Sequence record: KP869107
From: Escherichia coli O157 typing phage 9
DNA length: 43,991 nucleotides
Direction: 5' to 3' (one strand)
In this document: piece by piece, positions 1 through 39,374 of the stretch
How the letters are laid out: every line of letters starts with the position of its first letter
Numbering within the stretch: position 1 is the first letter of the stretch
Position numbers and translations under genes: made by a program
Notes under the pieces: model-generated
Seen by the model: the letters and a program-made list of their open reading frames with translations, nothing else
Database searches by the model: none
Told to the model about the DNA's origin: nothing

Positions 1-270
1 ACAAATTTGCCTAATTGCCCTGGCCCACCAAGAGGAACAAAGTTATTCATCACGGCGTTGTTTGCGCCGGGGTCATGATGCACAGAATCCCCGTTTTTTG
101 TCCTGCTCTCCCTCTCTTGGTTAAATGACTGGTTATATGACTGGTTCTGGATCCCGTTTTTGGGATCATTCAACATCCCGTTTTTGGGATCATTCAACAT
201 CCCGTTTTTGGGTATATTCCCGTTTTCGGTAACATTACCGTTTTCGGGTTCATTGACCCCCTCTCGGTTG
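1..270. repeat. Direct repeat, copy 1 (matches 39093-39374 except one 12-bp unit)
   Basis: Read directly: acaaatttgcctaattgccctggcc... recurs at 39093; copy 1 has 2 units of atgactggtt(a/c)t, copy 2 has 3. Confidence 0.95.
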
Positions 271-479
271 CCTTTAATGTTCCCGTTTTTGGTTATATTA
301 AGAGAGAAAACCCGCACTCTTTTTGTCGCTCCCTTTCTCTCTCCGGTATCTGAAATAAGCCCCATTTTCATGAGCGATATAAGCCCGGCCTGCACGGTTT
401 TTTTATTCAGGCAAGTGTCTTTAACGAGGCGTTCTATGCTGGGGTAGCAGAGGTTATATTCATCGGCTCTGTCAGCCAT
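1..479 (-). CDS. Replication initiator, lambda O-like (N-terminal HTH domain plus iteron-encoded linker); C-terminus lies beyond the window start
   Basis: Minus-strand translation from ATG at 479: MADRADEYNLCYPSIERLVKDTCLNKKTVQAGLISLMKMGLI... (replication-initiator HTH signature), continuing through the iterons as NG-rich repeats; sits upstream of the P-like gene in the circular map. Confidence 0.6.
   Translation of the reverse strand, partial: MADRADEYNLCYPSIERLVKDTCLNKKTVQAGLISLMKMGLISDTGERKGATKRVRVFSLNITKNGNIKGNREGVNEPENGNVTENGNIPKNGMLNDPKNGMLNDPKNGIQNQSYNQSFNQERESRTKNGDSVHHDPGANNAVMNNFVPLGGPGQLGKF
151..300. repeat. Origin-like iteron array (about 6 copies of a CCCGTTTT(T)GG core, two perfect 24-bp units) inside the O-like gene
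   Basis: atcccgtttttgggatcattcaac at 151-174 and 175-198, degenerate copies to about 300; same arrangement as the lambda ori within gene O. Confidence 0.6.
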
Positions 480-569
480 CGAGAGCAGTATGAGCTTTAA
501 TGATGAGCTGCCTGGATCTGTCTCCCAAGCCCAATCTGTTGCATGTCTGCTCATGATTAATCTCCGCTA

Positions 570-770
570 TCAGCTTGAGTGTTGTGGGGAGGAATTAATC
601 ATGATCTGCTTAATCTCTGCCCTGATGCGACGGTTTGATTCCATGGTGCACTCAACACAGTGTCCGTTGTAAACCCAGCGTTCACTGTCATGTCCGTGCT
701 TACATTGTTTTCCGGTGTAATAGCGTTTAAGTCCGCGCTTTGCGGCATCAATACGTGTAATGATTTCCAT
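570..770 (-). CDS. Hypothetical small Cys/His-rich protein in the cII-equivalent position
   Basis: ORF with C-x-H-G-H...H-C-x-x-C cluster; track start at 833 is TTG, first ATG at 770; lies between Cro-like gene and O-like gene. Confidence 0.35.
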   Translation of the reverse strand: MEIITRIDAAKRGLKRYYTGKQCKHGHDSERWVYNGHCVECTMESNRRIRAEIKQIMINSSPQHSS

Positions 771-875
771 GGTAAGCCCTGTTATTAGTATTGGGATTAC
801 GGTTATTTTGTGCTGACACAAAAAAAAGATCAACCATATTTGGTTTTTTATTACCTTTGAGGTACGAATAGATAT

Positions 876-899
876 GAAAAGACCGCCGGATGGCGGTCT
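876..899 (-). terminator. Rho-independent terminator after the Cro-like gene
   Basis: Hairpin agaccgcc-ggat-ggcggtct followed by T-tract on the minus strand. Confidence 0.5.
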
Positions 900-920
900 A
901 CAGAGGGTTGTGGCTGGATA

Positions 921-1151
921 TCATGAGTAGAAGAAGTATGCCAGTTCTGCTTTTGAGCGCAGCCATTGTCTTGTTTTACAGGCTTTAAAAAGCCCATTCA
1001 TCAATACCTTACCTGGCATTTTGCGCTTACCTGTTAAGTGAGTCTGGATATAGTGACTCGTCGTTCCGGCTTCCTGTGCGAAGGCTTCACGCTCATCCGG
1101 AGTAAGTGCAAGCCAGTGCTTTTTGAAATCGAAATGTCCGTTATCGCTCAT
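921..1151 (-). CDS. Cro/CII-like HTH regulator, divergent from the repressor gene
   Basis: 76 aa, ATG at 1151; HTH-like segment LTPDEREAFAQEAGTTSHYIQTHLTGKR; divergent from the repressor-like gene across a 154-bp operator region. Confidence 0.5.
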   Translation of the reverse strand: MSDNGHFDFKKHWLALTPDEREAFAQEAGTTSHYIQTHLTGKRKMPGKVLMNGLFKACKTRQWLRSKAELAYFFYS

Positions 1152-1187
1152 AGCTATTGCCTGATATTTATTTCAGATAATAAATAT

Positions 1188-1250
1188 TCACCCATAAGGT
1201 AACAAAAATCAAGGATAGTTACCTATGGGGTGCATTTACCTGTTGGGTAA
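1188..1250. promoter_or_regulatory. Operator cluster: three TTACC-N5-GGTAA-type sites between the divergent repressor and Cro-like genes
   Basis: Sites at 1188-1202 (TCACCcataaGGTAA), 1219-1233 (TTACCtatggGGTGC), 1236-1250 (TTACCtgttgGGTAA). Confidence 0.5.
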
Positions 1251-1305
1251 TATTGCTTTAAATTGAATCATCTACTGATTCATATATGAGGCGATTTTCC
1301 AGAAA

Positions 1306-1890
1306 ATGAAAAGTATCCAGGACGTCCGCAGGCAAAATCTCAACGACTTGATCGACCGTGAATTCAATGGTGTTCAGACGCGGATGGCAGAAAAACTTGG
1401 AACTCAGGCAAATCTGGTAAACCGCTGGGCTCTTGGCAAGAAGGTTATCGGCGACCAGGTTGCGCGAAAAATTGAAGCTGCCGCCAATAAACCCCGTAAC
1501 TGGCTTGATATCGATCGCTCGCTTTCTCAGGAAGGTTTTCAGCCTGTCGGACCAAGCGACATTGGTCAACTGGCGGCTCACAACCTGGAACGCTGGATGA
1601 GCGAAAGCCGCGACCTTTCAACGCAGGGAAAACTTCACCGCGCATCCGGCGTCGCCCAGGTAACAATCAGCCGCCTGTTAAACAATGAGGTCAGCGTTTC
1701 CATTTCCACCCTGGAGAATGTTGCATCCGCATTTGGGCGTCACGGATATGAATTACTGATTCACCCGCACGACCCCGCGACTATCAACTATGACCGCTCG
1801 CGCTACGCATTGTTACCTGAAACAGAGAAGGCAAAGATCGAAAGTTACATTGAATTTGTCATCAACCAGAACGAAAAAAACAAACAATAA
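1306..1890 (+). CDS. Phage repressor-like protein with two HTH domains and no peptidase S24 (autocleavage) domain
   Basis: 194 aa, ATG at 1306; two HTH-like segments (MAEKLGTQANLVNRW... and ASGVAQVTISRLLN...); no Ala-Gly/Ser-Lys cleavage module recognisable. Confidence 0.55.
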   Translation: MKSIQDVRRQNLNDLIDREFNGVQTRMAEKLGTQANLVNRWALGKKVIGDQVARKIEAAANKPRNWLDIDRSLSQEGFQPVGPSDIGQLAAHNLERWMSESRDLSTQGKLHRASGVAQVTISRLLNNEVSVSISTLENVASAFGRHGYELLIHPHDPATINYDRSRYALLPETEKAKIESYIEFVINQNEKNKQ

Positions 1891-1910
1891 AATCATATTT
1901 TTCAGTAAGT

Positions 1911-1935
1911 AAGCCGCCTTATGGCGGCTTTTTTA
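1911..1935 (+). terminator. Rho-independent terminator after the repressor gene
   Basis: aagccgcc-ttat-ggcggctt followed by ttttt. Confidence 0.55.
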
Positions 1936-1947
1936 TTGCCTATTCGA

Positions 1948-2024
1948 TTACCTAACGGGTAATTTTTTTAACTCATATCTATTGACATCAAACCAGATAC
2001 GCATAATTATTACCTCAACGGTAA
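1948..2024 (+). promoter_or_regulatory. Promoter/operator region of the recombination operon (TTGACA flanked by two perfect TTACC-N5-GGTAA sites)
   Basis: Sites at 1948-1962 and 2010-2024; TTGACA at 1983-1988; located just upstream of the 2044 and 2199 genes. Confidence 0.45.
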
Positions 2025-2043
2025 CAGACCGAGGTAACAAGTT

Positions 2044-2196
2044 ATGCAGTGGAAAATCATCAACGGTTGGTACTGCGTTACTGCATGCGGATTCATGAGC
2101 TGGAAGTTCCGCACCTTACAGGAAGGCATTAAGTGGGCTTTCGTCAGCAAAGAAGCTCGCGATGTAGCCAACGATAACGAGATATGGGAGGGCTGA
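2044..2196 (+). CDS. Hypothetical small protein (50 aa)
   Basis: ATG at 2044 preceded by gaggtaacaag; below the track's 60-aa cutoff, found by manual translation: MQWKIINGWYCVTACGFMSWKF... Confidence 0.3.
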   Translation: MQWKIINGWYCVTACGFMSWKFRTLQEGIKWAFVSKEARDVANDNEIWEG

Positions 2197-2198
2197 TA

Positions 2199-2498
2199 AT
2201 GAACGTTAATCAGCAGAAAAATCTTCAAAAAATCATGCTGGCATTCGACAAGGACTACCGCCTGTCAGAACAGCTATATGACCGACAAGTTGAACTGATT
2301 GAGAGCATCCGACTTCATCAACTGTCCTCAACTTTTGACGTTGTAACAGGCAAAGGCGTTCGTCAGGAAGTACTGGAGGCTGCTAAAGACAGCCCTGAGT
2401 TCGAAGAACTGATGGATGCCTATCGGCGAGAGGCAATGGCAATTATCGCCCGCTGGGATCTGGCGGATCAGCTTGATGGACAGAGGGACGCGGCATGA
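2199..2498 (+). CDS. Hypothetical protein (99 aa), translationally coupled to the downstream recombinase
   Basis: ATG at 2199 with GGGAGG RBS; stop overlaps the ATG of the next gene (ATGA). Confidence 0.45.
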   Translation: MNVNQQKNLQKIMLAFDKDYRLSEQLYDRQVELIESIRLHQLSSTFDVVTGKGVRQEVLEAAKDSPEFEELMDAYRREAMAIIARWDLADQLDGQRDAA

Positions 2499-4255
2499 AA
2501 CCGGGAATTTATTTCGACATCAGCAACGAAGACTACCACGCCGGTGACGGCGTGAGTAAGTCGCAACTGGACATGGTTGCCAAGAATCCGTCGCTTCTTA
2601 AATGGGTCCAGGCAGCACCAGAAGACGAAGAGAAAAAGTCTGCACTGGATATTGGAACCGCATTGCACTGTCTGCTTCTGGAGCCTGGAGAATTCGACAA
2701 ACGCTTCATTGTTTCACCGAAGTTCGATCGTCGGACGAAACAAGGTAAAGCTGACGAAGAAGCATTTCTTCGTGATGTAGCGGATATGGGGATTACGGTA
2801 CTTGATGCCGAGCAGTGGCGGAAACTGGAGCTGATGCGTGATAGCGCAATGGCTCACCCGGCGGCACGCTGGATGCTGGAAGCACCTGGTTTCTGCGAAG
2901 CATCAATGTACTGGAATGATGAAGATACTGGTGAGTTGTGCCGCATTCGTCCAGACAAATGGCTGAACGAGCACAACGTGATCGTCGACGTGAAAAAGGT
3001 TGCAGATATGGACCGTTTTGCACGCCACATCGAGGAATTCCGCTACCACGTGCAGGACGCAATGTACCGCGAAGGCGCAATGAGGGTTACTGGTCAGCCG
3101 CATGGTTTTTTCTTTCTTGCCGTGAGCGAAAGCATTGATTGTGGTCGGTATCCGGTACGCGTGTTCGAGCTGGATGCGCCGGATGTCGATGCCGGGCACG
3201 CTCTGTTCCGCCGGGATCTGAATACCTATCACGAATGCCGCATAAATGATGAATGGGGCGGTGTGGAAATCATTAAACGCCCTGAGTGGGCACGCAAAAC
3301 AGGATATGTACATATGAGCAACGACATCGCAAACATCAACGCACCAGTAGACACAGCAATCGCTGGAACTGCTGCAACTATTTTCAGCCCAGACGGCTTG
3401 AACCAACTGATGAAATTCGCCGAGGTAATGGCGCAAAGCCGCGTAACGGTACCGGCGCACCTCGCCGGGAAACCAGCTGATTGCATGGCCGTGGCAATGC
3501 AGGCTGCGCAGTGGGGAATGAACCCGTTTGCCGTGGCTCAGAAAACCCATGTTGTGAACGGCACGCTAGGTTATGAAGCCCAATTAGTAAACGCAGTTAT
3601 CTCAACGATGTCGCCAACAAAAGATCGCATCAACTACGAGTGGTTCGGGCCGTGGGAACGCGTGATCGGTAAGTTTGTTGAGAAAACATCCAAAAACGGC
3701 AATCCATATATCGCACCAGGCTGGACTCTAAAAGACGAAGAAGGCTGCGGTGTTCGCGTATGGGCAACCATGAAGGGCGAGGATCAACCTCGAGTGCTTG
3801 AGTTAATGCTGTCTCAAGCACAGGTAAGAAACTCCACACTTTGGGCCAGTGATCCGAAACAACAACTCGCATACCTTGCGACAAAACGCTGGTCTCGCTT
3901 GCACTGTCCTGACGTAATCATGGGCGTCTACACACCAGACGAATTACAGGAAACGGCACCGCGCGTTGAGCGAGACATTACTCCGCAAACGACCACTGCT
4001 GCGGGAATGAACAGTCTGATCAACGCTAAACCAGTGAAAAAGCCTGATGAGCAAACTCGTAAAGCGGATAGCCGTGATCCAGAAGAAATGCTGATGGCCT
4101 TTACCAGCGCAGCGATGAATTACAGCACTGTCTCCGAACTGGATAAGGCTTACAAATACATTGCACAAAAACTTTCAGATGATGACGAACTGCTGGCAAA
4201 AGCCACCGACGTTTACAGCGTTCGTCGGGAAGAATTAAACGAAACATCTATGTAA
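2495..4255 (+). CDS. Recombination protein: N-terminal PD-(D/E)XK exonuclease domain fused to a C-terminal RecT/Bet-family annealase domain
   Basis: 586 aa; N-term DIGTALHCLLLEPGEFDKRFIVSPKFDRRTKQGK (PD-(D/E)XK / exonuclease VIII-like signature); C-term MAVAMQAAQWGMNPFAVAQKTHVVNGTLGYEAQ (RecT/Bet-like); single uninterrupted ORF. Confidence 0.65.
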   Translation: MKPGIYFDISNEDYHAGDGVSKSQLDMVAKNPSLLKWVQAAPEDEEKKSALDIGTALHCLLLEPGEFDKRFIVSPKFDRRTKQGKADEEAFLRDVADMGITVLDAEQWRKLELMRDSAMAHPAARWMLEAPGFCEASMYWNDEDTGELCRIRPDKWLNEHNVIVDVKKVADMDRFARHIEEFRYHVQDAMYREGAMRVTGQPHGFFFLAVSESIDCGRYPVRVFELDAPDVDAGHALFRRDLNTYHECRINDEWGGVEIIKRPEWARKTGYVHMSNDIANINAPVDTAIAGTAATIFSPDGLNQLMKFAEVMAQSRVTVPAHLAGKPADCMAVAMQAAQWGMNPFAVAQKTHVVNGTLGYEAQLVNAVISTMSPTKDRINYEWFGPWERVIGKFVEKTSKNGNPYIAPGWTLKDEEGCGVRVWATMKGEDQPRVLELMLSQAQVRNSTLWASDPKQQLAYLATKRWSRLHCPDVIMGVYTPDELQETAPRVERDITPQTTTAAGMNSLINAKPVKKPDEQTRKADSRDPEEMLMAFTSAAMNYSTVSELDKAYKYIAQKLSDDDELLAKATDVYSVRREELNETSM

Positions 4256-4304
4256 CCACCACCGCGGCGCCACACGCGCCGCACTGCAACCAAGAGAGGT
4301 ATTT

Positions 4305-4553
4305 ATGAAAGGTGCATTAGGTAAGAAGGAACTCCTGGCGGTGGTGCCACTGTCATGGAGCACTATCGACCGTATGGAGCGCGCAGGGGAATTTCCTAAA
4401 CGCTGGTATATCACTGACAAACGCTGCGCATGGAACCGTGACGAAGTTGAGCGTTGGCTTGATGAACGTCAGGCAGCAAGCCCGGCAGAGTTCCAGGGTA
4501 AAAAACCTCCTGTTCAGCAACGTGTATATCGTCCCGTGAGCAACGCTGCATGA
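4305..4553 (+). CDS. AlpA/excisionase-like DNA-binding protein
   Basis: 82 aa, AGAGAGG RBS; MerR-like HTH pattern LLAVVPLSWSTIDRMERAGEFPKRWYI typical of AlpA/Xis. Confidence 0.6.
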   Translation: MKGALGKKELLAVVPLSWSTIDRMERAGEFPKRWYITDKRCAWNRDEVERWLDERQAASPAEFQGKKPPVQQRVYRPVSNAA

Positions 4554-4662
4554 GTGCGCTGCTAAGGCACTGGAGCAAATGGTCAGGATGGTACTTATTC
4601 CTGGCCTCTGTTTCAGCATGGCTTTATCTGCTGGCATTAATTTTCAGAGAGGGTTGGATTAA

Positions 4663-4962
4663 GTGAGAAAGTTAAGCCGACTTGAAAAATATCACATGAA
4701 TAAGGTTTCAATGCGCAGTCCGTCAAAGATTGTCGCCGTTACTCCTGCGGCGATAGAGATCGAAAAACGCGCGATTGAAAGAGAGAAAAAAGGGCAGTTC
4801 CGCATTGCCGCTCACCTTTGGCTTCAGTGTATGGATGTTGCTTCTGGTGATGTTGAACGTGCAAGGATCGCGGTTCGCAGGGACCAATGTATCACAAAAG
4901 GTAACGGCCTTCGCCGTGGCGACTATAGCGGCATAGGATGTTGTGGGGTGGTTTATGACTAA
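4663..4962 (+). CDS. Hypothetical protein (possible small regulator)
   Basis: ORF from the track; track start is GTG, alternative ATG at 4711 has an AAGG RBS; no family recognised with confidence. Confidence 0.35.
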   Translation: MRKLSRLEKYHMNKVSMRSPSKIVAVTPAAIEIEKRAIEREKKGQFRIAAHLWLQCMDVASGDVERARIAVRRDQCITKGNGLRRGDYSGIGCCGVVYD

Positions 4963-5605
4963 GAAATACACACTAATCTATGCAGATCCACCCTGGGTAT
5001 ACCGGGACAAAGCCGCAGATGGTAATCGCGGTGCCGGTTTTAAATATCCGGTTATGAGTGTGCTGGATATCTGCCGCCTTCCTGCGTGGGATTTGGCCGA
5101 TGAAAACTGTCTGTTGGCCATGTGGTGGGTGCCAACACAACCACTCGAAGCACTAAAAGTTGTTGAAGCCTGGGGATTTCGTCTGATGACGATGAAGGGC
5201 TTCACGTGGATAAAATGTGGTAGTCGACAACCAGATAAACTGGTTATGGGTATGGGGCACATGACTCGCGCCAATAGTGAAGATTGCCTGTTTGCGGTAA
5301 AGGGAAAACTACCTACGCGCATTAATGCAGGGATCGTTCAGTCATTTACCGCACCGCGGCTTGAGCATTCAAGAAAACCAGATGTCGTTCGTGAAAAACT
5401 TGTGCAATTGTTAGGCGATGTTTCTCGCATTGAACTGTTCGCCCGCCAGTCGTCTCATGGCTTCGATGTTTGGGGTAATCAGTGCGAAGACCCGGCAGTG
5501 CAACTACACCCTGGATACGCGTTGGATATTGGCGGATTAACAAATGCATTCAGCAATGCTCCGCTGTCACCAACAGACAACCAGGGGCAGGAGCGTGCAG
5601 CATGA
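4955..5605 (+). CDS. DNA N6-adenine methyltransferase (DPPW motif; MT-A70/phage Dam-like)
   Basis: YTLIYADPPWVYRD catalytic motif; start taken at ATG 4955 (track start 4943). Confidence 0.7.
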   Translation: MTKKYTLIYADPPWVYRDKAADGNRGAGFKYPVMSVLDICRLPAWDLADENCLLAMWWVPTQPLEALKVVEAWGFRLMTMKGFTWIKCGSRQPDKLVMGMGHMTRANSEDCLFAVKGKLPTRINAGIVQSFTAPRLEHSRKPDVVREKLVQLLGDVSRIELFARQSSHGFDVWGNQCEDPAVQLHPGYALDIGGLTNAFSNAPLSPTDNQGQERAA

Positions 5606-5796
5606 ACAGGGCATCACCAGCAGATTTAAGGAAATGCCTTGAAACTGCAAACATGCTTGCACACAGCGGGATAAGGTTTGTTCCAATTCCCGCTGTCACT
5701 GATGCTGAATTTGCAACACTGTCAGCAATATTCGCAGATAAAATTGAATCACTGGCAGCAGAAGCCGAGATGGAAGAAAATCAGCAGAATAATTAA
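5602..5796 (+). CDS. Hypothetical small protein (64 aa), start overlapping the methylase stop
   Basis: ATG at 5602 within gcagcATGAac (ATGA overlap); convergent with integrase. Confidence 0.35.
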   Translation: MNRASPADLRKCLETANMLAHSGIRFVPIPAVTDAEFATLSAIFADKIESLAAEAEMEENQQNN

Positions 5797-5799
5797 ACG

Positions 5800-7050: not shown

Positions 7051-7092
7051 AATTCACCCGTATAAAAACCATTTTCATGACGGTATGAGAGT

Positions 7093-7339
7093 ATACCTTT
7101 AAGGTAATACCGTCACCTGTACCGCCGAAAAATATGGTGTAGAGTGAATAGAAATGAATACATAAAAACAAAAACCCTCTGTAAAAACAGAGGGTTAAAT
7201 TAGTATCTGAATAGGAATGAGTTGCTATGAGTTAGCTGTTAATCATTCCCACTCAATTATTTACGGCAACCATAACCAATTGAGTGATAACATTTTTCCA
7301 AAACTTCATTTTTTTAGTACCGTTTTATATACCGTCACC
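7093..7339. promoter_or_regulatory. Candidate attP / integrase control region
   Basis: Noncoding stretch upstream of int with direct repeats taccgtcacc (7108-7117 and 7330-7339), 9-bp inverted repeat cactcaatt/aattgagtg (7250-7286), and a TTACC-type site at 7093-7107. Confidence 0.3.
7165..7196 (-). terminator. Rho-independent terminator after the lysis cassette
   Basis: Hairpin aaccctctg-taaaaa-cagagggtt with T-rich tract on the minus strand. Confidence 0.5.
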
Positions 7340-7367
7340 GGAAATCAGTACCATGAAAAATGCCATG

Positions 7368-13452: not shown

Positions 13453-13493
13453 GGAGTGCTTATATTTACCGCAAAGGTAAATATAAGCACTCC
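13453..13493. promoter_or_regulatory. 41-bp perfect palindrome (18-bp arms, 5-nt centre) containing TTACCgcaaaGGTAA
   Basis: ggagtgcttatatttacc-gcaaa-ggtaaatataagcactcc read directly. Confidence 0.6.
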
Positions 13494-18924: not shown

Positions 18925-21434
18925 TGCGGAATATCTCCGGAGAATCTCTGACGCTTCTGTGTCAGATCAAGAACAACGGGAGAACCATCATCTTTTAGCA
19001 GATAACCAGTACCAAGTTTCACCAGGTACTGACTATCGCCGTAACTTTGCAAACCATACTGACCAGGCGGTGTTTTTATCCCTGTGCCAACAACTTGTTC
19101 ATTCCAAGCCTGATTAACCTGCTTATCGAATTGCTCTGCAGACATTCCCCACGGCAAAAGAACATTCCCCATTCCGTTATAGTCATGCACGCCACCTGTA
19201 GCTACGTTAACAGCCTGTTTCCAGATATCATTGTCAATTTCGCCTGATACCACGCCTTTTTTCGCCATCACACCAGCGTAATAGTCCTTTGCGATCTCGT
19301 ATGCCATTGATGCCCCCTGAGCATCACCAGCAAATGCATCCTTCACCATGTCAGAAAACTCAAGGCGAAGATCAGCATCTTTAGGCATCGGAATACCTTT
19401 CGCGTCATCAGTACCTTTACGAGCCGCCGCGCCAGCAAGAATTGTCTGCGCAGCGGTTTCTGGAGACACGGAAACATCCGGATTAAACCAGTTTTTTTCT
19501 GCCAAAATACCACCTGGCTTATCCATCAGTATCCCGGCAACGGCAGCAGATGGAGCGTTGGCACTGATCTGCTGTAGTGCTGACATATACACCTGCCCAC
19601 CACCAGTGCTCTGCCTGATGGTATCGAGATATGCTGCCTGTTGGGAAACGGGCGCATCACGAAAGAAAACACCGATCTGATTGGCCTCGTCTTTGGAAAA
19701 GAACGTCAGTGGAGTGCCATATGACTTAGCAAGGTCACTGACCTGAGCAGCACGCAAGGCAACGCTCTGTCCAAAGTTATCCTTATTGCTCATGTCGATA
19801 GGCTTTGCCTGTCCGGCGGCAAGAGAGAACTGTACAGGATCAGCCTGTCGCTGCTTTATCACCTGACTTGCAGCCGACACAACGTTGTCATAAAGAGCGG
19901 CTCGTGCCGCATAACCCTCCCCTGTCTCACCAGTATCCGGGCGTAATTGCTCAACATATGCTGTAATGCTGCTTGTCGGCATGTTGCGGAAAGAGCCTAT
20001 ATACTGTCCGGCGATTTGCGTATTTCTGAACTCGGTATATCGCAGGTTTCCTTCTCTTACTCCATAAGCTGCAATAAAATCAGCCTCACCAGGTGGGTTA
20101 GGAAATTCAACGCCACGCATATACGCAGCTGTCGCATCGCGAACCTGGCTGTCAATCATCGTTTTATATTCAGCCTGCTGCTGCCGACGCAGTTGATCCG
20201 CCTGTCGCATAAAACTTGCCTGCGCCTCAGGAGATGCCGCATCGAATGCTGCATTACCGGTATAGCGTTTGGTGTTGGTTGGAATTGTTGATAAACCAAG
20301 TGCTGCACTGACACCAGCAGTTAACTGCTGATCACTGTATGGCTGGCTACCGTTCTCATGATGGATAATGGCTGCACAAAGCGCCTTCAGGGTATCAGGA
20401 TTAGATGCATCGAGAGGCTCATCAGCAGAAACGCCAAGTTGTTCGCACACTGCTTTGATATACGACATAGTGTCATTTTTATCAGCAGGCGGTGCCCAGC
20501 GATTAATTATCTCGCTGACGGTATCAATACCCTGCCTCTGATACGACATCAGGTTCCGCCCTAATGCACGAATCCCGTGTTCAGGTGTTTCGAATTTAGC
20601 AAATCGACCATCATCACCGGTCTGGCCTACCCACGGATTAGTTTTGCTGTATTCGAGATTTCCTGGGTTATTGTTGCGTATGCCACGGGCACGCTCGGAA
20701 GAGTCACTATCTGCTACAGCACGGCGAGCTCCAGCAGCAGTATCACTTAACTCGCCATTACTTTGGATGAATGCGGTCGCATTGTTTGCCGACCACTGGG
20801 ACAATGCAGCATCAGCAACCTTCTCTTTAAACTCGATTTTCTTGGCCTGGATTTGCTCGTTGCTCCAGCCACGTGCAACACCGTACTCCTCAATTTGCTG
20901 GAAAGTTTGCTTGTTAGCCAATACGTATGCGGCGTTGTCGCCATACAATGCTGCGGCATTTTTACCATTGTTCAGCAGTGTCGCCTGAAACTGGCCTTCT
21001 TCGTAGGCATTAATTTGCCCTATCTCGTGTCGCCCGGCCTGCGTAGTGAACTGAATGCGCTGCTGCTGCGCCTGCTGCATGAAAGCATTACGAGCCTGTT
21101 CATCCGGCAGCGACATAGCCAGTTGTTCGACCTGAGCATCAAACTGCTGCGTATACTCATGGCCTTTTCCAATAGCATTTTTCCCTTTCAGGTTAAGCAA
21201 TCCTGTTTCAGGATTATTCAGCAGATCGCTGCTTATCTGACTGAGGTTAAGAGATGCTTCCTGAGCCAGAGCGATATTGGCACGCTGTTTTGCCTGCCCC
21301 AAAACATCAATTGCCTCTGTCCCTGCCCGAACAAAAGCATCACCAATACCTTGCTGAGAAAACGTCTGCAAGCCTGCTGACTGAACTCCACGACTCTCAA
21401 CCTGACGTCCGGATACTGTTGGTACGACTGGCAT
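18921..21434 (-). CDS. Virion internal/ejection protein with a possible peptidoglycan-hydrolase-like segment
   Basis: ATG at 21434 with GGAGGA RBS (track start 21509 lies inside the upstream gene); contains RGIRNNNPGNLEY motif. Confidence 0.5.
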   Translation of the reverse strand: MPVVPTVSGRQVESRGVQSAGLQTFSQQGIGDAFVRAGTEAIDVLGQAKQRANIALAQEASLNLSQISSDLLNNPETGLLNLKGKNAIGKGHEYTQQFDAQVEQLAMSLPDEQARNAFMQQAQQQRIQFTTQAGRHEIGQINAYEEGQFQATLLNNGKNAAALYGDNAAYVLANKQTFQQIEEYGVARGWSNEQIQAKKIEFKEKVADAALSQWSANNATAFIQSNGELSDTAAGARRAVADSDSSERARGIRNNNPGNLEYSKTNPWVGQTGDDGRFAKFETPEHGIRALGRNLMSYQRQGIDTVSEIINRWAPPADKNDTMSYIKAVCEQLGVSADEPLDASNPDTLKALCAAIIHHENGSQPYSDQQLTAGVSAALGLSTIPTNTKRYTGNAAFDAASPEAQASFMRQADQLRRQQQAEYKTMIDSQVRDATAAYMRGVEFPNPPGEADFIAAYGVREGNLRYTEFRNTQIAGQYIGSFRNMPTSSITAYVEQLRPDTGETGEGYAARAALYDNVVSAASQVIKQRQADPVQFSLAAGQAKPIDMSNKDNFGQSVALRAAQVSDLAKSYGTPLTFFSKDEANQIGVFFRDAPVSQQAAYLDTIRQSTGGGQVYMSALQQISANAPSAAVAGILMDKPGGILAEKNWFNPDVSVSPETAAQTILAGAAARKGTDDAKGIPMPKDADLRLEFSDMVKDAFAGDAQGASMAYEIAKDYYAGVMAKKGVVSGEIDNDIWKQAVNVATGGVHDYNGMGNVLLPWGMSAEQFDKQVNQAWNEQVVGTGIKTPPGQYGLQSYGDSQYLVKLGTGYLLKDDGSPVVLDLTQKRQRFSGDIPQ

Positions 21435-26237: not shown

Positions 26238-26238
26238 C

Positions 26239-31124: not shown

Positions 31125-31286
31125 GAATCACGCCTAAGGACCGTGATGCCAGAAGTTCCAGGGGCTTGGCGGTGATGGTTTCCCTTGAAGGACTATCACC
31201 GCCCTTTTTACAGCAGGACGCCATTGCGATGACTTCATGCTGTAAACCAGTACAGCCACGGAAGGCATAACTCATTGCTTCCAGTT

Positions 31287-31311
31287 CGCCCGGTTCGCCG
31301 GGCATTTTTTT
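31287..31311 (+). terminator. Rho-independent terminator downstream of the tRNA
   Basis: gcccgg-ttcg-ccgggc followed by attttttt. Confidence 0.5.
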
Positions 31312-31327
31312 AAGGTGAGATCAGACT

Positions 31328-31699: not shown

Positions 31700-31715
31700 C
31701 ACCGTGACATGTCAC

Positions 31716-31748
31716 AAACAGCCAGCCGATGAGCTGGCTTTGTTTTAT
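31716..31748 (+). terminator. Hairpin terminator after the 31328 gene
   Basis: agccagc-cgatga-gctggct followed by ttgtttt; immediately preceded by palindrome GTGACATGTCAC. Confidence 0.4.
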
Positions 31749-31789
31749 CCTCACCAGAGGATATCTCCGTCATTATCCCCGCTAACGGA

Positions 31790-33265: not shown

Positions 33266-33858
33266 TGATTACCATCCTGACGTTCTTTGAGTCGCTTCCT
33301 GGCTGCCGCTATGCGATCAGCAATTGTCACATTCACATTAACATCCAGGCGTTCTTTGAATGCGTTGACGTCGACGTGCTTACCAATCAGTTCGAGGTTC
33401 TTCACCTTGTCAGGCCATTTAATTTTTTTGAGGATTGTCTCTATCGAATCCTCGTTCATGTTCATGATGGTCGATGACAGATCAAAGCCACTAAGCGTAG
33501 TGCGCCAGATTTTCGGCCACTCACGGATTGGTTTAAGGCTCCCATCGTCGTTGAGGATATCGATCACGTCCATCTGGTCGATCTCCACCAGGCGCATGAG
33601 AACGTAATCAGCACTGACGCGCATTCGTTTGTTGCGCTCCTCCATCAACTCGGCAATCCGTTTTTGAATGCGTTCATCGCGCATCATGACACTGGCTTTA
33701 ACTGCCGCTGTATTTGGGGAGAATCCTGCGTTAATCGCTGCCTGAGTCTGGTTTTCAGGCGTTTTGATGTATGACTGGCAATAAGCCTCCTGCATTGCTG
33801 TGAGCGGCTTAAATTGCGTTGATTTGCGTTTATAGGTTTTAGGTTCAGCAGGCATCAT
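33262..33858 (-). CDS. terS: Terminase small subunit
   Basis: About 198 aa from ATG 33858 (GGTGG RBS); directly upstream of TerL. Confidence 0.6.
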   Translation of the reverse strand: MMPAEPKTYKRKSTQFKPLTAMQEAYCQSYIKTPENQTQAAINAGFSPNTAAVKASVMMRDERIQKRIAELMEERNKRMRVSADYVLMRLVEIDQMDVIDILNDDGSLKPIREWPKIWRTTLSGFDLSSTIMNMNEDSIETILKKIKWPDKVKNLELIGKHVDVNAFKERLDVNVNVTIADRIAAARKRLKERQDGNQ

Positions 33859-33862
33859 AACC

Positions 33863-33897
33863 ACCGTGGTAATAGTTACCGTTGTGGTAATAGTACC
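33863..33897. promoter_or_regulatory. Tandem 17-bp direct repeats containing GGTAATAG(T)TACC immediately upstream of terS
   Basis: ccgtggtaatagttacc / gttgtggtaatagtacc read directly. Confidence 0.4.
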
Positions 33898-33901
33898 ATG
33901 C

Positions 33902-33927
33902 AAAATAAAGCCGCCATAGTTGGCGGC
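33902..33927 (-). terminator. Rho-independent terminator between the early/middle genes and the late (terminase) operon
   Basis: gccgcca-tagt-tggcggc with T-rich tract on the minus strand. Confidence 0.5.
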
Positions 33928-33976
33928 AGTATTCAAAACCCATCAAATTCATCATGCATAATCTACTCGTAACATG

Positions 33977-34315
33977 TCACACTATTAATTTCGTTTCATG
34001 CCAGCCTTTAGTCACCCAGCATTGCGAGTCACCATTACACGGGCATGAATTAACTGGAACTCTCTCGCCGCACTTACCGCAACGTTTTCTGCTGATCGAT
34101 TTTATACGCCCGTGCACGCGTGCATCATCCTGGCGGATCAGTAACGCTATATACTCACCAAATTCGTAAGGCGCACGCCCGGGGCGACGCGTAGCACAGT
34201 TACGCTCCAGCATTTCAATTTCCTGAGCATCAAGCACAATTTCCAGCTTACGCACACCAGATGCAGCTTGTCTGGCTCTCTGAGCGGCTTTGCGCTCTGC
34301 TGCTGATTTAGCCAT
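33977..34315 (-). CDS. Small protein with RHH-like N-terminus and C-terminal Cys cluster (candidate regulator)
   Basis: ATG at 34315 with AAGGT RBS; RKLEIVLDAQEIEMLER (strand-helix pattern) and CGKCGERVPVNSCPC. Confidence 0.4.
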   Translation of the reverse strand: MAKSAAERKAAQRARQAASGVRKLEIVLDAQEIEMLERNCATRRPGRAPYEFGEYIALLIRQDDARVHGRIKSISRKRCGKCGERVPVNSCPCNGDSQCWVTKGWHETKLIV

Positions 34316-34589
34316 CAATATTTACCTTTATCGCGTATACCTTTACCGGTTTATCGCCGAAGTGCGGATGTGTGATTGTCTTGATTTCATATCCGTCATA
34401 CGGAACATCAATTCTACGGCTGGAATCGTCGCGCTTCGGATATCCCTTTGTGATAATCAGGCGGTCATACTCCCGGAACATAATTCGCTTATTCCAGTAG
34501 TCATTACACAGGCGATACTCTTCCGTTTTCTCTCCGCGAATCATGGCATCGAAGTATTCACCTTTGACGGCAAGTTGCAGGTTAGCCAC
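34308..34589 (-). CDS. ASCH-like domain protein
   Basis: 93 aa; AVKGEYFDAMIRGEKTEEYR...LIITKGY pattern; GTG start with GGAGG RBS. Confidence 0.45.
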   Translation of the reverse strand: MANLQLAVKGEYFDAMIRGEKTEEYRLCNDYWNKRIMFREYDRLIITKGYPKRDDSSRRIDVPYDGYEIKTITHPHFGDKPVKVYAIKVNIDG

Positions 34590-35283
34590 GGTTAACCTCC
34601 AGTTGTGGTGCTGCTTCTATAGCAGCCCTGTAACCAGCAGCATGACCGCGAAAGTTAGCAATCTCTGATAGCCACGCTTTAATCATGGCCTGAGTTGGCT
34701 CCTTCGGCACCATAACCCAACTATCCGGAGTTCCCGGAGAGTTGCCAGCCAGTCTACGCAACACAGCCTTAACCGCCTCAATACGGTCATCATCAACTTT
34801 TTCTACAATATTGGAATTTAAATACTTCGAAGCCTTGCTATGCCAATCGCTGGTTTTAGGGTCTTGTCCATCCATCAAACGCCAAGCTTCAGCGATTAAC
34901 TCATAGCCAGTAACAGTGGCTTCCTGCGCATCACCAATCAGTTGTGTGATCTCTCTTTCAAGCATGCTTAGAGCGTTAGGCATTGGTTTTTCTTCAGGTA
35001 CTACTGGCACCGGAGGGGCGGCATAAACAGGAATAACGTCCGCTTGCTCTTTATTGCTTTCATCCGTTAAAGCCCAGAATAATTTCCCGGCCGGATGTTT
35101 GAAAATATAAGCAACTGGCTCTGCTTCCAGCGATGCCAGCGTAATTTCGGCCAGCTTGAGGTGAATAACCGCCGCATCAGAAGCGCCCGGGACTCTTTCC
35201 ACCGCACCGCGAAGAACCTCAATATTCTTCTTAGCCTGCTCAATCAACTGCTCTTTGGTGAACTCTTTGGTAATAGTGGTCAT
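34582..35283 (-). CDS. Hypothetical protein
   Basis: 233 aa ORF, ATG start; no family recognised. Confidence 0.45.
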   Translation of the reverse strand: MTTITKEFTKEQLIEQAKKNIEVLRGAVERVPGASDAAVIHLKLAEITLASLEAEPVAYIFKHPAGKLFWALTDESNKEQADVIPVYAAPPVPVVPEEKPMPNALSMLEREITQLIGDAQEATVTGYELIAEAWRLMDGQDPKTSDWHSKASKYLNSNIVEKVDDDRIEAVKAVLRRLAGNSPGTPDSWVMVPKEPTQAMIKAWLSEIANFRGHAAGYRAAIEAAPQLEVNRG

Positions 35284-35488
35284 TTATTAATCCTCAAAAC
35301 TTTATGCCCGGGCGCAAAAGCACGCGTTTTGTCTTTGCTTATTCGCCAGCCATCCTTACGTGCCTCTTTTGCACAGCCAGCCCATGACGTACCGATATAC
35401 TCACCGAAGTCTGGCGTTTGATATTTACCATTTGTACACTGGCGACAATCACAGTAGAGATGCATGGTGTAACTTGCGGCAATAGCCA
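35280..35488 (-). CDS. Small Cys-rich hypothetical protein (69 aa)
   Basis: ATG at 35488 with AAGGAG RBS; CDCRQC...C cluster. Confidence 0.45.
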
Positions 35489-35490
35489 TA

Positions 35491-35682
35491 TCAGTCTCCT
35501 TTAGCGCGCAGGTGGTTTTTCCAGCGGTTTTGCGCCGCGCTGCGCTTATCTTTGATTCCCTCTCTGGCAATTCCAGAATATAAGTACAACACCACACGGC
35601 GATTGCTAACTCTCAACCACTGGCTGGGATAGCAACGTCTGTATACACGGGAAATAAGCATCTTTGCTTTACGGTTTTTCAT
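35491..35682 (-). CDS. Arginine-rich micro-protein (63 aa), paralogue of the upstream ORF
   Basis: MKNRKAKMLISRVYRR...; start overlaps the stop of the previous ORF (ATGA). Confidence 0.35.
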   Translation of the reverse strand: MKNRKAKMLISRVYRRCYPSQWLRVSNRRVVLYLYSGIAREGIKDKRSAAQNRWKNHLRAKGD

Positions 35683-35861
35683 CTTACTGCGTACCCTTTC
35701 TTCCGCCTGTTCTGTGACGCGCTGGGCTTTTTGCAACAACTGTGCCCCATCACCCCGCAACACCCCGTCAACCTCACTCGTCTGTTACTAATCCTCAACC
35801 AGCGCCAGACCCCAACACCGTTTCTGCGAGCTAACAGAATTTTTGCCTTACGGTTTTTCAT
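35679..35861 (-). CDS. Arginine-rich micro-protein (60 aa)
   Basis: MKNRKAKILLARRNGVGVWRWLRISNRRV...; start overlaps the stop of the previous ORF (ATGA). Confidence 0.35.
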   Translation of the reverse strand: MKNRKAKILLARRNGVGVWRWLRISNRRVRLTGCCGVMGHSCCKKPSASQNRRKKGYAVR

Positions 35862-35953
35862 CGTTTTGCTCTCCTGCGTTTCTTTGCTTCGCGTCGTGCA
35901 GCCGCAATACCGGTATGGCGGCGCTTTGGTGCAGGGATGATGTTGTCAGCCAT
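35858..35953 (-). CDS. Arginine-rich micro-ORF (31 aa)
   Basis: MADNIIPAPKRRHTGIAAARREAKKRRRAKR; stop overlaps the next ATG; weak RBS. Confidence 0.2.
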   Translation of the reverse strand: MADNIIPAPKRRHTGIAAARREAKKRRRAKR

Positions 35954-36033
35954 CAGGACATGCGGCTTTGCAATTAGCGCAGAAGCCCAAAATCGAGTCG
36001 GATACGGTAACAAGCCGATACATGCCACACGCA

Positions 36034-36732
36034 TTACTCACCTCCTTTGATGCGAATGCCAGCGGCGCGTGGCACATTAACTTCCACGATGCGCACAGTT
36101 GGTTTGTACATCTCAATCGCTGTCAGCCAGTCAGCGCCAGTCATGCGCTTTTCTGCATCGCCATTAGTCCACTTAACCGGTACACCAATAGCCTTCATCG
36201 CGATTTCTATTTCCCCGGCAATGGCGCTTTTTCCGCAACCAGTAAAACCAGAAACAACGACAAGAACTTCACCTTTGGCTGGCTTTATTTCCCGTGCTTC
36301 CAGTTCAGCAATACGCTTACTCCCATCCGAGATAACACCTTCGTAATACTCGCGTTGCTCGTTGAGTTTTGATTTTGCTTCCTCAAGCTCAACACGCAGT
36401 TTCCCTACCGTTAGCGCAATATCCTCGTTCTCCTGGTCACGGCGTTTGATGTATTGCTGGTTTCTTTCCTGTTCATCCAGCAGTGCCAGCACGGTAGCCG
36501 GGTTAGCCTCTGCTATGAATTCAGCGTTTGCATAAGCCTGAGCATCTGATTCAATCAGGCAGTTAACATGACATTCCGCAATCACACCACCGGGTTCTCC
36601 TTTCCATTTTTGGCAAACAAAAACTCCTGTTAAATTGCCGTGCTGGTTAACAGATGTATGCCCTACGATGTAGCTTCCTTTAGTTGCTTTCTCTGCCTTT
36701 TCACGCAGTGCCTGATAGTTAATTTGGGTCAC
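36034..36732 (-). CDS. Hypothetical protein (possibly Ead/Ea22-like, coiled-coil)
   Basis: 232 aa; GTG start with GGAGGA RBS; central coiled-coil-like region. Confidence 0.4.
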   Translation of the reverse strand: MTQINYQALREKAEKATKGSYIVGHTSVNQHGNLTGVFVCQKWKGEPGGVIAECHVNCLIESDAQAYANAEFIAEANPATVLALLDEQERNQQYIKRRDQENEDIALTVGKLRVELEEAKSKLNEQREYYEGVISDGSKRIAELEAREIKPAKGEVLVVVSGFTGCGKSAIAGEIEIAMKAIGVPVKWTNGDAEKRMTGADWLTAIEMYKPTVRIVEVNVPRAAGIRIKGGE

Positions 36733-36938
36733 TCTTCATCCTCCAAGTCGGCAACGGCGTCCATCACATCAGAACCGCGAATAACCTCAAAAGCACGGCA
36801 GGCCATTTGAAATACCAGTTGCTCTTGCGGATGCGGTGATTCCCAATATTTGAATCCAGGGCGATGCGCGTACCCCATCATTGAATAAAAATCACCAGCA
36901 AGCTTAATCGCGGCATCAACAAGCTCTCTGTTAGTCAT
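36729..36938 (-). CDS. Hypothetical small protein
   Basis: ATG at 36938 (track start 36986 would overlap the upstream gene); stop overlaps the next start (GTGA). Confidence 0.35.
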   Translation of the reverse strand: MTNRELVDAAIKLAGDFYSMMGYAHRPGFKYWESPHPQEQLVFQMACRAFEVIRGSDVMDAVADLEDEE

Positions 36939-36949
36939 TCTTTTTCCGC

Positions 36950-37525
36950 TCACTGGTTGCCTCCTTTGCGAATCTGTTCCGCCCATTCTTCTAGGGATTT
37001 CTCCGCATATTCACCGGACAGGCCATCAATCGGGTGTGGTTCATTAGCCAACTCTTCTTTCGCTGACAGAATCATGCGTGTAACGTCGAAAACTTCACGT
37101 AAAGACTTATTGATAAATCCGTGATTGAAAGCAGCAGCAAGACGGCTTGCGGTATAGTTAATCCCCTCGTTGCGTGCTTCCGCACGAATTTCAGCCAGGA
37201 AAGCATCGGTGGCTGGAATGGGCTTTTGTGGTGATATAGCAATGCGAATTGTCTCAAGGTCTGGATCTGTTTCCGCTGCTGGCACCTTGATATAACCCAT
37301 CTGCACCCCATTCATGATGAACCTGCGACGGTCATCACATATCGCCTTCAGCCCCGCATTCTCCGCCGCCATCGCATTAGCACGCACCAGTTGCACTTCC
37401 AGTTGCGTTGCCAAATCGCTGATCAGCTTTGCCACACTACGCATATCAACGGCACCACATTCTGCTTTCAGTTCCGAAGCCATCTCATGCCCGGCGGAAA
37501 CTAACCCTTTGATATTACTTTCCAT
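36950..37525 (-). CDS. Hypothetical protein
   Basis: 191 aa ORF, ATG start. Confidence 0.4.
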   Translation of the reverse strand: MESNIKGLVSAGHEMASELKAECGAVDMRSVAKLISDLATQLEVQLVRANAMAAENAGLKAICDDRRRFIMNGVQMGYIKVPAAETDPDLETIRIAISPQKPIPATDAFLAEIRAEARNEGINYTASRLAAAFNHGFINKSLREVFDVTRMILSAKEELANEPHPIDGLSGEYAEKSLEEWAEQIRKGGNQ

Positions 37526-37586
37526 CTTTACCCTCGCTTATCCACATAACTTATTGATTACATTGATAACTAAAAAGATCGTCGAT

Positions 37587-37931
37587 TCAGAACTCTTCGA
37601 TATTCCAGCCACCACCTGCTTTCTTTGGTTTAACCGTTACCCCGATGATTCGGAACGGATACTGATCTGCGGCGACTTTGGTTTTCACCCTGGCGTCGTC
37701 GGTCCAGAAACCTTTCACTTCGTGCAGTTCCATCTCTCCGGTGGCGAGCATCACAGCGAAATCGGGCGTATAAAACGTGTTGTCAGCCAGCCGCAGCTTG
37801 ATACCCTCGAACCGATACCAGGCGACTTCCCCTGCACGTTTACGCTGCTCAAGGTGCTGGCAATACGCAGATTCTGTTTTGTTCATCTGGCCTGTTTTGA
37901 GTCGACCAAGAGCCTGTATCTGTTTTCTCAT
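37587..37931 (-). CDS. DUF1064-like phage protein
   Basis: 114 aa; pattern EVAWYRFEGIKLRLADNTFYTPDFAV...HEVKG recalled as DUF1064, common in lambdoid early regions. Confidence 0.5.
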   Translation of the reverse strand: MRKQIQALGRLKTGQMNKTESAYCQHLEQRKRAGEVAWYRFEGIKLRLADNTFYTPDFAVMLATGEMELHEVKGFWTDDARVKTKVAADQYPFRIIGVTVKPKKAGGGWNIEEF

Positions 37932-37934
37932 GAT

Positions 37935-38011
37935 TTACCTCTAAGGTAATTAAAAACCACATAAGACACGAAATCAATAGATCTAAGAATATTTTGTTAC
38001 CCATTAGGTAA
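37935..38011. promoter_or_regulatory. Two perfect TTACC-N5-GGTAA sites between the P-like and DUF1064 genes
   Basis: 37935-37949 TTACCtctaaGGTAA; 37997-38011 TTACCcattaGGTAA. Confidence 0.45.
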
Positions 38012-38048
38012 CTATTGAGGCGTAAAAAAATGCGCTATCGCGCTGGTA

Positions 38049-38849
38049 TTACTTGATAAATCCTGCTGCCTTTCCTCGCCTGTATTCCTCCATCAGCCAC
38101 TGCGCCGGTGTTATTCCCCCCAGGGTGGCGGCGTTAGGCATGCACCCGAAACTTCGCCCTGGTGGATGGTAAACATCTCTCCCTGTGTCCGGAGGCGTAC
38201 TCATGGGTTCTGGCTTTGCCTGTATGCTGATCACCGGATCGGGTATCTGCTGTCCGGAAGCCACCTTTTTCGCCCAATCATCGAGCAGCCTGCGCGCGTG
38301 TTTCTCAACCTCAATCTCGCTAAGCTGGCGCTGATACATTGCACGGCGGGTATCACATACGACCCAGTACATAACCGGATGCCGCCACGGGAATCTTTCG
38401 GGACCACCAGGATATAAACTTTTTTCCTTGCTGTACCGGTGAAACTCCGCCATCACATCGTCAATGGTGACGCCAAGAACCATCTTGCTGTCTTTACACC
38501 ACTTGATGAATTGCCCTGGCGACGGCCAGAACGGAGACTCACTGGCGCGGGCGTGGCGCATACCAGCAGAAACCTGTTCACGGGTTCGGATCCCCCCTTC
38601 GGCAAACGCAGCAATCCACTGCTGTTTTGCAGCAACTTCCTGCTCTGGCGTCTTCAGGTTGGTTACCACTGCCGCCGGAAACAGTTGTTTCAGCTGTTTG
38701 AAAAGGGCATCAACAAGCCTCTCTGCTGACATGTTCACCACGTTGTCATTGTTGGTGTACTGATGCTCATAACCTGACATGCGAGAAAGGGCTTCTCCGT
38801 CACGGTTTTGTATCGCGGTAAAAACGTTGTTCACAAGAAATCCTCCCAT
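38049..38849 (-). CDS. Replication protein P-like (helicase loader)
   Basis: 266 aa; segment GIRTREQVSAGMRHARASESPFWPSPGQFIKWCKD aligns by eye with lambda P (GITTMEQVNAGMRVARRQNRPFLPSPGQFVAWCRE). Confidence 0.7.
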   Translation of the reverse strand: MGGFLVNNVFTAIQNRDGEALSRMSGYEHQYTNNDNVVNMSAERLVDALFKQLKQLFPAAVVTNLKTPEQEVAAKQQWIAAFAEGGIRTREQVSAGMRHARASESPFWPSPGQFIKWCKDSKMVLGVTIDDVMAEFHRYSKEKSLYPGGPERFPWRHPVMYWVVCDTRRAMYQRQLSEIEVEKHARRLLDDWAKKVASGQQIPDPVISIQAKPEPMSTPPDTGRDVYHPPGRSFGCMPNAATLGGITPAQWLMEEYRRGKAAGFIK

Positions 38850-39374
38850 GCTTCAGGGCTGTTCCAGTGCGGAACGTTGTTATCAGGTAATGTTGATTGC
38901 TTCTGTCTGCTAATCTGCAGCCGCCTTGCCAGCTTCTGCTCCCACTGTGCCTGATGGTATGCCTTACCCTCAGCCATCCAGTAAATTCTGAACTCTGCAA
39001 GTTCCTGTGCCGTTGGCAGACTGTCCAGGTAGATCCCCTGCAATGAGCTTTTCCGAAGAAAGTCATCTGATGGCTGCCATTGTTCATGCATGACAAATTT
39101 GCCTAATTGCCCTGGCCCACCAAGAGGAACAAAGTTATTCATCACGGCGTTGTTTGCGCCGGGGTCATGATGCACAGAATCCCCGTTTTTTGTCCTGCTC
39201 TCCCTCTCTTGGTTAAATGACTGGTTATATGACTGGTTATATGACTGGTTCTGGATCCCGTTTTTGGGATCATTCAACATCCCGTTTTTGGGATCATTCA
39301 ACATCCCGTTTTTGGGTATATTCCCGTTTTCGGTAACATTACCGTTTTCGGGTTCATTGACCCCCTCTCGGTTG
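38831..39374 (-). CDS. Replication initiator O-like, C-terminal part plus iteron-encoded linker; N-terminus lost in the N run
   Basis: Minus-strand frame open from the N run through the iterons (MLNDPKNG repeats, NQSY repeats) to a stop at 38831; overlaps the P-like start. Confidence 0.6.
39093..39374. repeat. Direct repeat, copy 2 (truncated by N run at 39375)
   Basis: Identical to 1-270 apart from an extra 12-bp tandem unit at 39229-39240. Confidence 0.95.

Follow-up and report, generated by a model that had tools for sequence, protein, structure and literature searches.

Why should a contig assembled from bacteriophage DNA begin and end with the same sequence, and with a different number of repeat units in each copy? 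This question is raised by the 43,991-nucleotide (nt) sequence recorded as KP869107 under the name of Escherichia coli O157 typing phage 9 (referred to below as the window). Self-BLAST aligned positions 1-270 of the window with positions 39093-39374, with 0 mismatches and a single 12-base gap. The gap falls in a short tandem repeat inside gp43, the gene encoding the replication initiator. The initial annotation had described a terminal duplication with two repeat units in one copy and three in the other, and had proposed either a heterogeneous population merged by the assembly or two distinct genome copies (tandem prophage or concatemer). In the reading that we favour, with a probability of roughly 0.6, the window carries the genome of phage phiV10, the sequenced DNA contained two alleles of an in-frame 12-bp origin repeat, an assembler working with k-mers of 147 nt left the circle open, and the 2-unit allele is a minority slipped-strand deletion variant within the phage stock.

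The two copies of the overlap and their arrays are the following:

1-270 (no strand): copy 1 of the overlap, the 2-unit arm of an assembly bubble; the first 147-mer specific to the 2-unit sequence starts at 1 and the last ends at 270

39093-39374 (no strand): copy 2 of the overlap, the 3-unit arm, ending at a gap of 100 Ns; the 136 147-mers specific to the 3-unit sequence cover exactly this span

125-148 (minus strand): 12-bp tandem array of 2 units, AACCAGTCATAT / AACCAGTCATTT on the coding strand, encoding NQSY-NQSF (regular expression, Tandem Repeats Finder (TRF), translation)

39217-39252 (minus strand): 12-bp tandem array of 3 units encoding NQSY-NQSY-NQSF, the allele of the phiV10 reference (same methods)

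The difference in unit number was borne out by all three approaches applied to it. Besides the single gap in the self-BLAST alignment, a regular expression counted two units (ATGACTGGTTAT ATGACTGGTTCT) at 125-148 and three units of the ATGACTGGTTAT type at 39217-39252, and TRF reported a period of 12 with copy numbers of 2.4 and 3.4, respectively. Translated from the minus strand across the closed circle, the gene yields 271 residues with two units (...IQNQSYNQSFNQ...) and 275 with three (...IQNQSYNQSYNQSFNQ...). The additional unit is thus in frame and adds one NQSY tetrapeptide to gp43.

Comparison with known genomes established the identity of the window. Positions 1-33976 and 33977-39374 match phiV10 (NC_007804.2; DQ126339.2) with 0 mismatches apart from the 12-bp gap, so that positions 1-39374 represent the circularly permuted phiV10 genome, and the unit absent from copy 1 is the sole difference. 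The reference is a temperate podophage of the genus Uetakevirus with a genome of 39,104 bp and one 3-unit array. A second GenBank record, KP869108.1 (E. coli O157 typing phage 10), coincides exactly with positions 125-39358 of the window; relative to it, the window has 124 extra bases on the left, which include the 2-unit array, and 16 on the right, followed by pieces of a Shiga toxin 2 (Stx2) phage. Positions 1-39374 are therefore one circularly assembling genome of phiV10, i.e. of typing phage 10, which according to the typing-phage paper had been sequenced earlier as phiV10 (PMC4429339). The phage itself is already known, and its 3-unit allele is the published one. The remainder of the window is of a different nature:

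39375-39474 (no strand): scaffold gap of 100 Ns, the end of the phiV10 contig

39475-43991 (no strand): five short contigs joined by Ns, with 100% identity to the portal-terminase region of Stx2 phage 933W/Sakai and not belonging to phiV10

The Stx2-phage pieces are 556-1106 bp each, and four further N runs lie between them. The lengths of these runs and the true distances in 933W are 173/135, 139/30, 222/194 and 242/297, respectively. Because the two differ, the N runs are paired-end gap estimates, and their interpretation as deliberate masks was rejected. The window is thus a scaffold, in which Stx-phage fragments at low coverage were attached to a phiV10 contig at high coverage. The fragments probably come from an induced Stx phage that was co-extracted at low coverage and joined through a chimeric link; for another typing-phage preparation, TP15, co-extraction of prophages induced in the propagating strain has been described (PMC4429339). 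The sequence past the 100-N run does not continue copy 1. The terminal duplication of the initial annotation stands as far as the identity of the copies is concerned, but copy 2 does not lie at the end of the window: it stops at the N run.

The limits of the overlap are accounted for by the geometry of a de Bruijn graph. Two circular genomes, of 39,092 bp (2 units) and 39,104 bp (3 units), were built from the window and their k-mer sets were compared. A k-mer specific to the 2-unit genome must cover the 22-bp periodic stretch and one base on each side (window positions 124-147), so that these k-mers together extend from 148-k to 123+k. The limits of copy 1, positions 1 and 270, each give k=147, an odd number. 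At this k, the 2-unit genome has 124 k-mers of its own and the 3-unit genome has 136; the arms are 2k-24 and 2k-12 long and centred on the indel, and the path from the 2-unit arm through the shared k-mers to the 3-unit arm reproduces window positions 1-39374 base for base. One odd k fits both ends, and the phiV10 reference is without a duplication. The end overlap is therefore a pair of arms of an indel bubble left unresolved in the graph, from which it follows that the variant caused the duplication. The initial annotation, which took the terminal duplication as given and the variant as falling inside it, thus inverted the causal order.

In de Bruijn assembly an ordinary circular contig has one overlap of k-1 and identical ends. 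The window differs from it in that each end holds a different allele, because the 12-base indel was not merged. By default, Velvet does not merge bubbles that need more than three alignment gaps, which would explain the survival of a 12-bp indel where bubbles due to single-nucleotide polymorphisms (SNPs) vanish. The course of events was probably as follows. The DNA taken for sequencing would have held two length alleles of the repeat, offering the assembler two alternative closures of the circle, which it would have left open at k=147; the linear path would then run out through the 2-unit arm at one end and through the 3-unit arm at the other, giving the appearance of a terminal duplication. 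Since such a path can arise in a single-k graph at k=147 only from reads of both alleles, both were most likely present in the reads. The 3-unit allele is that of reference phiV10, and the 2-unit allele is most likely a minority variant that slipped-strand deletion produced within the stock.

KP869108.1 corresponds to the shared k-mers plus the 3-unit arm at k=131. It is a closed circle with an overlap of k-1 and starts where the alleles diverge. This record has kept 130 bp of artefactual end overlap (1-130 and 39105-39234), and its replication initiator is split; only a truncated open reading frame (ORF), "dnaT primosomal protein 1", is annotated (coding sequence 38707-39180). The first of its locus tags is ECTP10_01613, from which it follows that the same assembly also included other (host) contigs with more than 1600 annotated genes. 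The duplication in the window and the 130-bp overlap of KP869108.1 call for caution: both are assembly artefacts that split the replication gene, and the overlapping ends should not be read as genome ends, as a tandem prophage or as a new element.

Both lengths of the 12-bp array occur in nature. In IMG/VR, two units are present in 119 of the 120 contigs with the locus, and at least three only in the phiV10 entry. The locus was found in 424 records from 5,426 complete E. coli genomes; the 2-unit allele was matched at 99% identity or more over 159 bp by 79 complete-genome records, and a 3-unit allele on a background of two or three iterons found no match at 95% or more in any of the 424. Among isolated phages, phiv142-3, PAS61 and EC.W1-9 are of the 2-unit length. 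In public data the exact 275-residue protein was found on 3 contigs (phiV10 and a few E. coli contigs) and the 271-residue form on 296. The repeat is thus a genuine natural length polymorphism, with two units common and three rare.

Aligned gp43 alleles differ only in the segment encoded by repeats, in steps of four residues. The octapeptide PKNGMLND, encoded by the 24-bp iteron, occurs 1-7 times in natural alleles and NQSx two or three times; a third NQSx unit exists in two forms, YYF and YFF, and on backgrounds of two, three and four iterons. The closest comparison is offered by the prophage of E. coli O157:H7 TT12B, which shares 99.9% identity with phiV10 over 27.2 kb; the two are separated by 8 SNPs and by three indels, of which two are unit changes in the origin: the 12-bp array has two units (three in phiV10), and there is an extra 18-bp degenerate-iteron unit. 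Unit number therefore differs between near-identical genomes, as in a variable-number tandem repeat shaped by strand slippage, and equivalent arrays recur in distant homologues (see below); on these grounds the repeat is more than a product of chance. The array does not behave as a phase-variable contingency locus, as its 12-bp unit keeps the frame and all natural alleles were seen at full length. Unit changes outpace point substitution here, so heterogeneity in a long-propagated stock is plausible.

The extra unit of TT12B, GTTTTCGGTAACATTACA, lies at window position ~239, in the 18-bp array at 200-254 (position 20183 of the TT12B sequence), and one protein allele (P0028) is short of six residues at the same array; all three arrays of the origin (12, 18 and 24 bp) are polymorphic in length. 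In the complete assembly of the bovine E. coli NADC1036, the same gp43 origin region is found on a separate replicon of 38,709 bp (NZ_CP076267.1), which may be a free circular phiV10-like phage or an assembled excised form.

A physical duplication, either a direct terminal repeat of virion DNA or adjacent genome copies one unit apart in a tandem lysogen or concatemer, is highly improbable. The annotation of the large terminase as P1 PacB-like suggests that phiV10 packages its DNA by the headful mechanism, with terminal redundancy and concatemeric replication, and adjacent copies would accordingly exist in infected cells. However, the boundaries of the overlap are set by k-mer geometry around the variant and not by a packaging site, and they enclose part of gp43, an essential replication gene located about 5 kb from the terminase genes. 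Positions 1-39374 consist of phiV10 sequence only, with no attachment-site junction or host DNA, and are colinear with a virion genome whose reference sequence has no such repeat; in a real lysogen, O157:H7 TT12B, the prophage is opened at int beside guaA. Because copies 39 kb apart are beyond the reach of short reads, adjacency cannot be read from the assembly. The reporter-phage paper makes no statement on genome ends. A physical terminal repeat, a tandem prophage and a concatemer were therefore rejected, and the merging of a heterogeneous population, also put forward in the initial annotation, is the best-supported reading.

The source of the 2-unit reads is a separate matter. It is conceivable, although unlikely, that they derive from a different, related genome sharing at least 270 bp around the origin, such as a phiV10-like prophage of the propagating strain or a carry-over sample. 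The 2-unit allele is common in E. coli prophages, including those of O157:H7 TT12A and TT12B, and the Stx2-phage fragments at 39475-43991, like the remark on TP15 cited above, make it clear that host or prophage DNA was co-extracted. Nevertheless, typical relatives of phiV10 are mosaic and ~96-97% identical to it, and at the same coverage would fork the main contig elsewhere; the 39-kb contig is unbroken by any other fork and is 100% phiV10, as expected of a stock variant. A TT12B-like prophage was rejected as the donor despite its 99.9% identity to phiV10, since its 18-bp insertion falls inside the 270-bp arm. Moreover, the strain that propagates typing phage 10 must be sensitive to it. One published account describes O-acetylation of the O157 antigen by phiV10 lysogens, which blocks phiV10 infection (PMC11854483), and the phiV10 annotation includes Oac, through which lysogens O-acetylate the receptor and prevent adsorption; the propagating strain is thus unlikely to be a phiV10 lysogen. 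Quite unlikely, in turn, is the absence of any biological 2-unit molecule, with the shorter arm produced by slippage in library polymerase chain reaction (PCR), by a multi-k assembler that carried over a collapse at small k, or by a step of gap closing or contig extension. The periodic stretch of the 3-unit array is 34 bp long, and at k below 23 it becomes a loop through which the path may pass one time too few; furthermore, the coverage of phage lysates is usually very high, and a variant at ~0.1-1% would pass a cut-off low enough to retain the Stx2 fragments. Against this, a single-k graph at k=147 contains the arm only if reads supply each of its 124 k-mers, this branch point is exactly where both the k=147 and the k=131 assembly break, and an artefact would have to reproduce the common natural allele exactly. 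Several points do weigh against a variant from within the stock. The whole 270 bp of copy 1 are found exactly in five complete-genome records of unrelated E. coli, e.g. enterotoxigenic E. coli H10407, so that, by sequence alone, contaminating reads and a variant arising in the stock would look the same; outside these 270 bp, H10407-like alleles differ from phiV10. That 2-unit reads exist, and how frequent they are, is deduced from contig geometry. Finally, typing phage 10 was sequenced by Illumina/Nextera and assembled with Velvet, with a published k range of 90-120 (PMC4429339); a k-1 overlap in this range was tried and rejected, as the window requires k=147 and the GenBank record k=131, a mismatch that also favours an artefact of assembly. 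The window may come from another assembly run or pipeline.

The preferred reading places the polymorphism in a replication origin, and the organization of gp43 is in keeping with this. The relevant features are:

1-554 (minus strand): 5′ part of the replication-initiator gene gp43, with its start codon at 552-554, running off the left end; encodes HTH_36 and the repeat-encoded linker (translation, Pfam)

38831-39374 (minus strand): 3′ part of gp43, with its stop codon at 38831-38833; encodes linker and DnaT-like C-terminal domain (translation, Pfam)

38049-38849 (minus strand): λ P-like helicase-loader gene directly downstream of gp43 (ORF list; annotated as replication protein P)

151-212 (minus strand): three strong iterons with a 24-bp period and a ATCCCGTTTTTGGGAT core, encoding PKNGMLND repeats; second copy at 39255-39316 (TRF)

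200-293 (minus strand): degenerate iteron boxes, CCGTTTTCGG / CCCGTTTTTGGT, at 219-230, 238-248 and 282-293

200-254 (minus strand): array with an 18-bp period; second copy at 39304-39358 (TRF)

90-101 (minus strand): solitary degenerate box resembling an iteron, CCCGTTTTTTGT, separated from the other boxes by the 12-bp array; second copy at 39182-39193

The gene is whole only in the closed circle. Pfam assigned HTH_36 (residues 18-67) and DnaT (188-256) to its product and no domain of the λ O family. The label "O-like", given in the initial annotation together with the in-frame gain of NQSY, is therefore correct for the role of gp43 and not for its family. AlphaFold, supplied with 117 diverse homologues, predicted both domains with a predicted local distance difference test score (pLDDT) of 94-98, and gave residues 90-180 a pLDDT of 46-50 and no secondary structure; a run on 13 near-identical alleles was uninformative (mean pLDDT 33.5). 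The linker between the domains, encoded by the iterons and the 12-bp array, is thus predicted to be disordered. With a disordered linker and a unit of 12 bp, gain or loss of a unit leaves the reading frame intact, and both lengths appear to be tolerated because each occurs in isolated phages.

Three 24-bp iterons and at least three degenerate boxes, together encoding KNG/ENG peptides, lie in the middle of gp43, and the loader gene follows directly downstream, an arrangement found in λ-type origins. On the coding strand the 12-bp array starts 6 nt past the last strong iteron, at the site that in λ-type origins is taken by the AT-rich unwinding region. It is the least stable 30-mer of gp43, with a free energy of -32.7 kcal/mol (gene mean -40.1, standard deviation 2.7). 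In five homologous genes the array ranked 1, 2, 1, 87 (of 771) and 44 (of 672) in this respect, i.e. it is the least or second least stable 30-mer in three of the five, which lends partial support to the idea of an unwinding element. Such a role is plausible. Inspection of the 12-mer by eye against the consensus of DnaA boxes and IHF sites gave no convincing match, and no claim is made.

Lambda-type origins provide the nearest parallel. In λ and in Stx phages, the iterons and an AT-rich tract are contained within gene O, and iteron number alters the length of the O protein; Stx phages have two extra iterons and 13 extra residues, with function kept (PMC7466680, PMC3349717). The phiV10 origin resembles the λ ori and the six-iteron origins of the Stx phages 933W and P27 in its location in the middle of the initiator gene and in the translation of its iterons. 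By analogy, it would also share an unwinding-prone tract beside the last iteron, and in both cases a P-like loader gene is located downstream. There are also differences. Unlike λ O, gp43 combines HTH_36 with DnaT, and its iterons have another sequence and a spacing of 24/18 bp; the tract past the iterons is a 12-bp tandem array in phiV10 and a simple 38-bp AT run in λ-type origins; and the variation concerns this array, within one sample.

In E. coli oriC and in iteron plasmids, such as RK2 (oriV), the unwinding elements contain tandem 13-mers. Like these, the phiV10 array consists of short tandem repeats of about one helical turn, located beside initiator-binding sites in the least stable DNA. 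Its sequence (core AAYCWNYCA) is unrelated to the 13-mers, it is also coding, and low stability at the array was seen in only three of the five homologous genes.

Equivalent arrays are present far beyond the close relatives of phiV10. In a sample of 130 representatives of the initiator family (clusters at 50% identity or less), 2-4 tandem N[QL][SP]x tetrapeptides were found in 27, against an average of 0.4 in shuffled sequences. Exactly two residues separate the last iteron-encoded NG from the start of the array in 24 of these 27. The DNA of ten lineages (31 units) conforms to AAYCWNYCA followed by three variable bases, and the synonymous choices within units are fixed: TCA for 17 of 18 serines (26% elsewhere in these genes), CCA for all 12 prolines (38%) and CTN for all 18 leucines (50%). 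Units within one array are copies of each other, yet the same codon choices recur across all ten lineages, which argues for constraint at the level of the DNA rather than of the peptide. The constrained synonymous sites suggest that the 12-mer array is an origin element.

The fixed synonymous positions seen in distant gp43 homologues are TCA, CCA, CTN and CAG. The genes downstream vary by lineage and encode an IstB/DnaC-like loader, a DnaB helicase or a P-like protein; the array therefore travels with the HTH_36 initiator and not with the loader.

A more far-reaching proposal is tentative, and we regard it as rather improbable in its entirety. According to this proposal, the 12-mer array (core AAYCWNYCA, 2-4 copies, 6 nt past the last iteron) would be a conserved, so far undescribed origin element of HTH_36-type phage initiators, acting in unwinding or in factor binding, its fast-mutating copy number would set the vigour of replication, and the stock would be polymorphic because lytic passage enriched the rare 3-unit allele over the 2-unit allele common in prophages.

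An assembly break triggered by a repeat is an ordinary finding; the conserved 12-mer array is the one lead that might be worth experiments. Present across the family and with constrained synonymous sites, it is a testable candidate for an unwinding or accessory element in a widespread and little-studied class of phage origins. The iteron region of phiV10-type origins is a hotspot of in-frame unit changes (12, 18 and 24 bp), which proceed faster than point mutations between near-identical phages, and the stock of a reference typing or reporter phage may also be heterogeneous at its origin.

Two further observations concern regions outside the origin. At window position ~3296, within a plus-strand ORF (2495-4255), a single A present in phiV10 and typing phage 10 is missing from the TT12B prophage (position ~23256 of the TT12B sequence compared). 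TT12B has separate genes for a PD-(D/E)XK nuclease and RecT, whereas a "RecE-RecT fusion" of 586 residues is annotated in phiV10; this fusion may be due to a 1-bp frameshift peculiar to the stock. Lastly, a 41-bp imperfect palindrome (88%) was found at 13453-13493. It is flanked by ORFs in convergent or divergent orientation, close to the Bro-N gene and the tail-fibre region, and roughly coincides with an annotated terminator region of phiV10.

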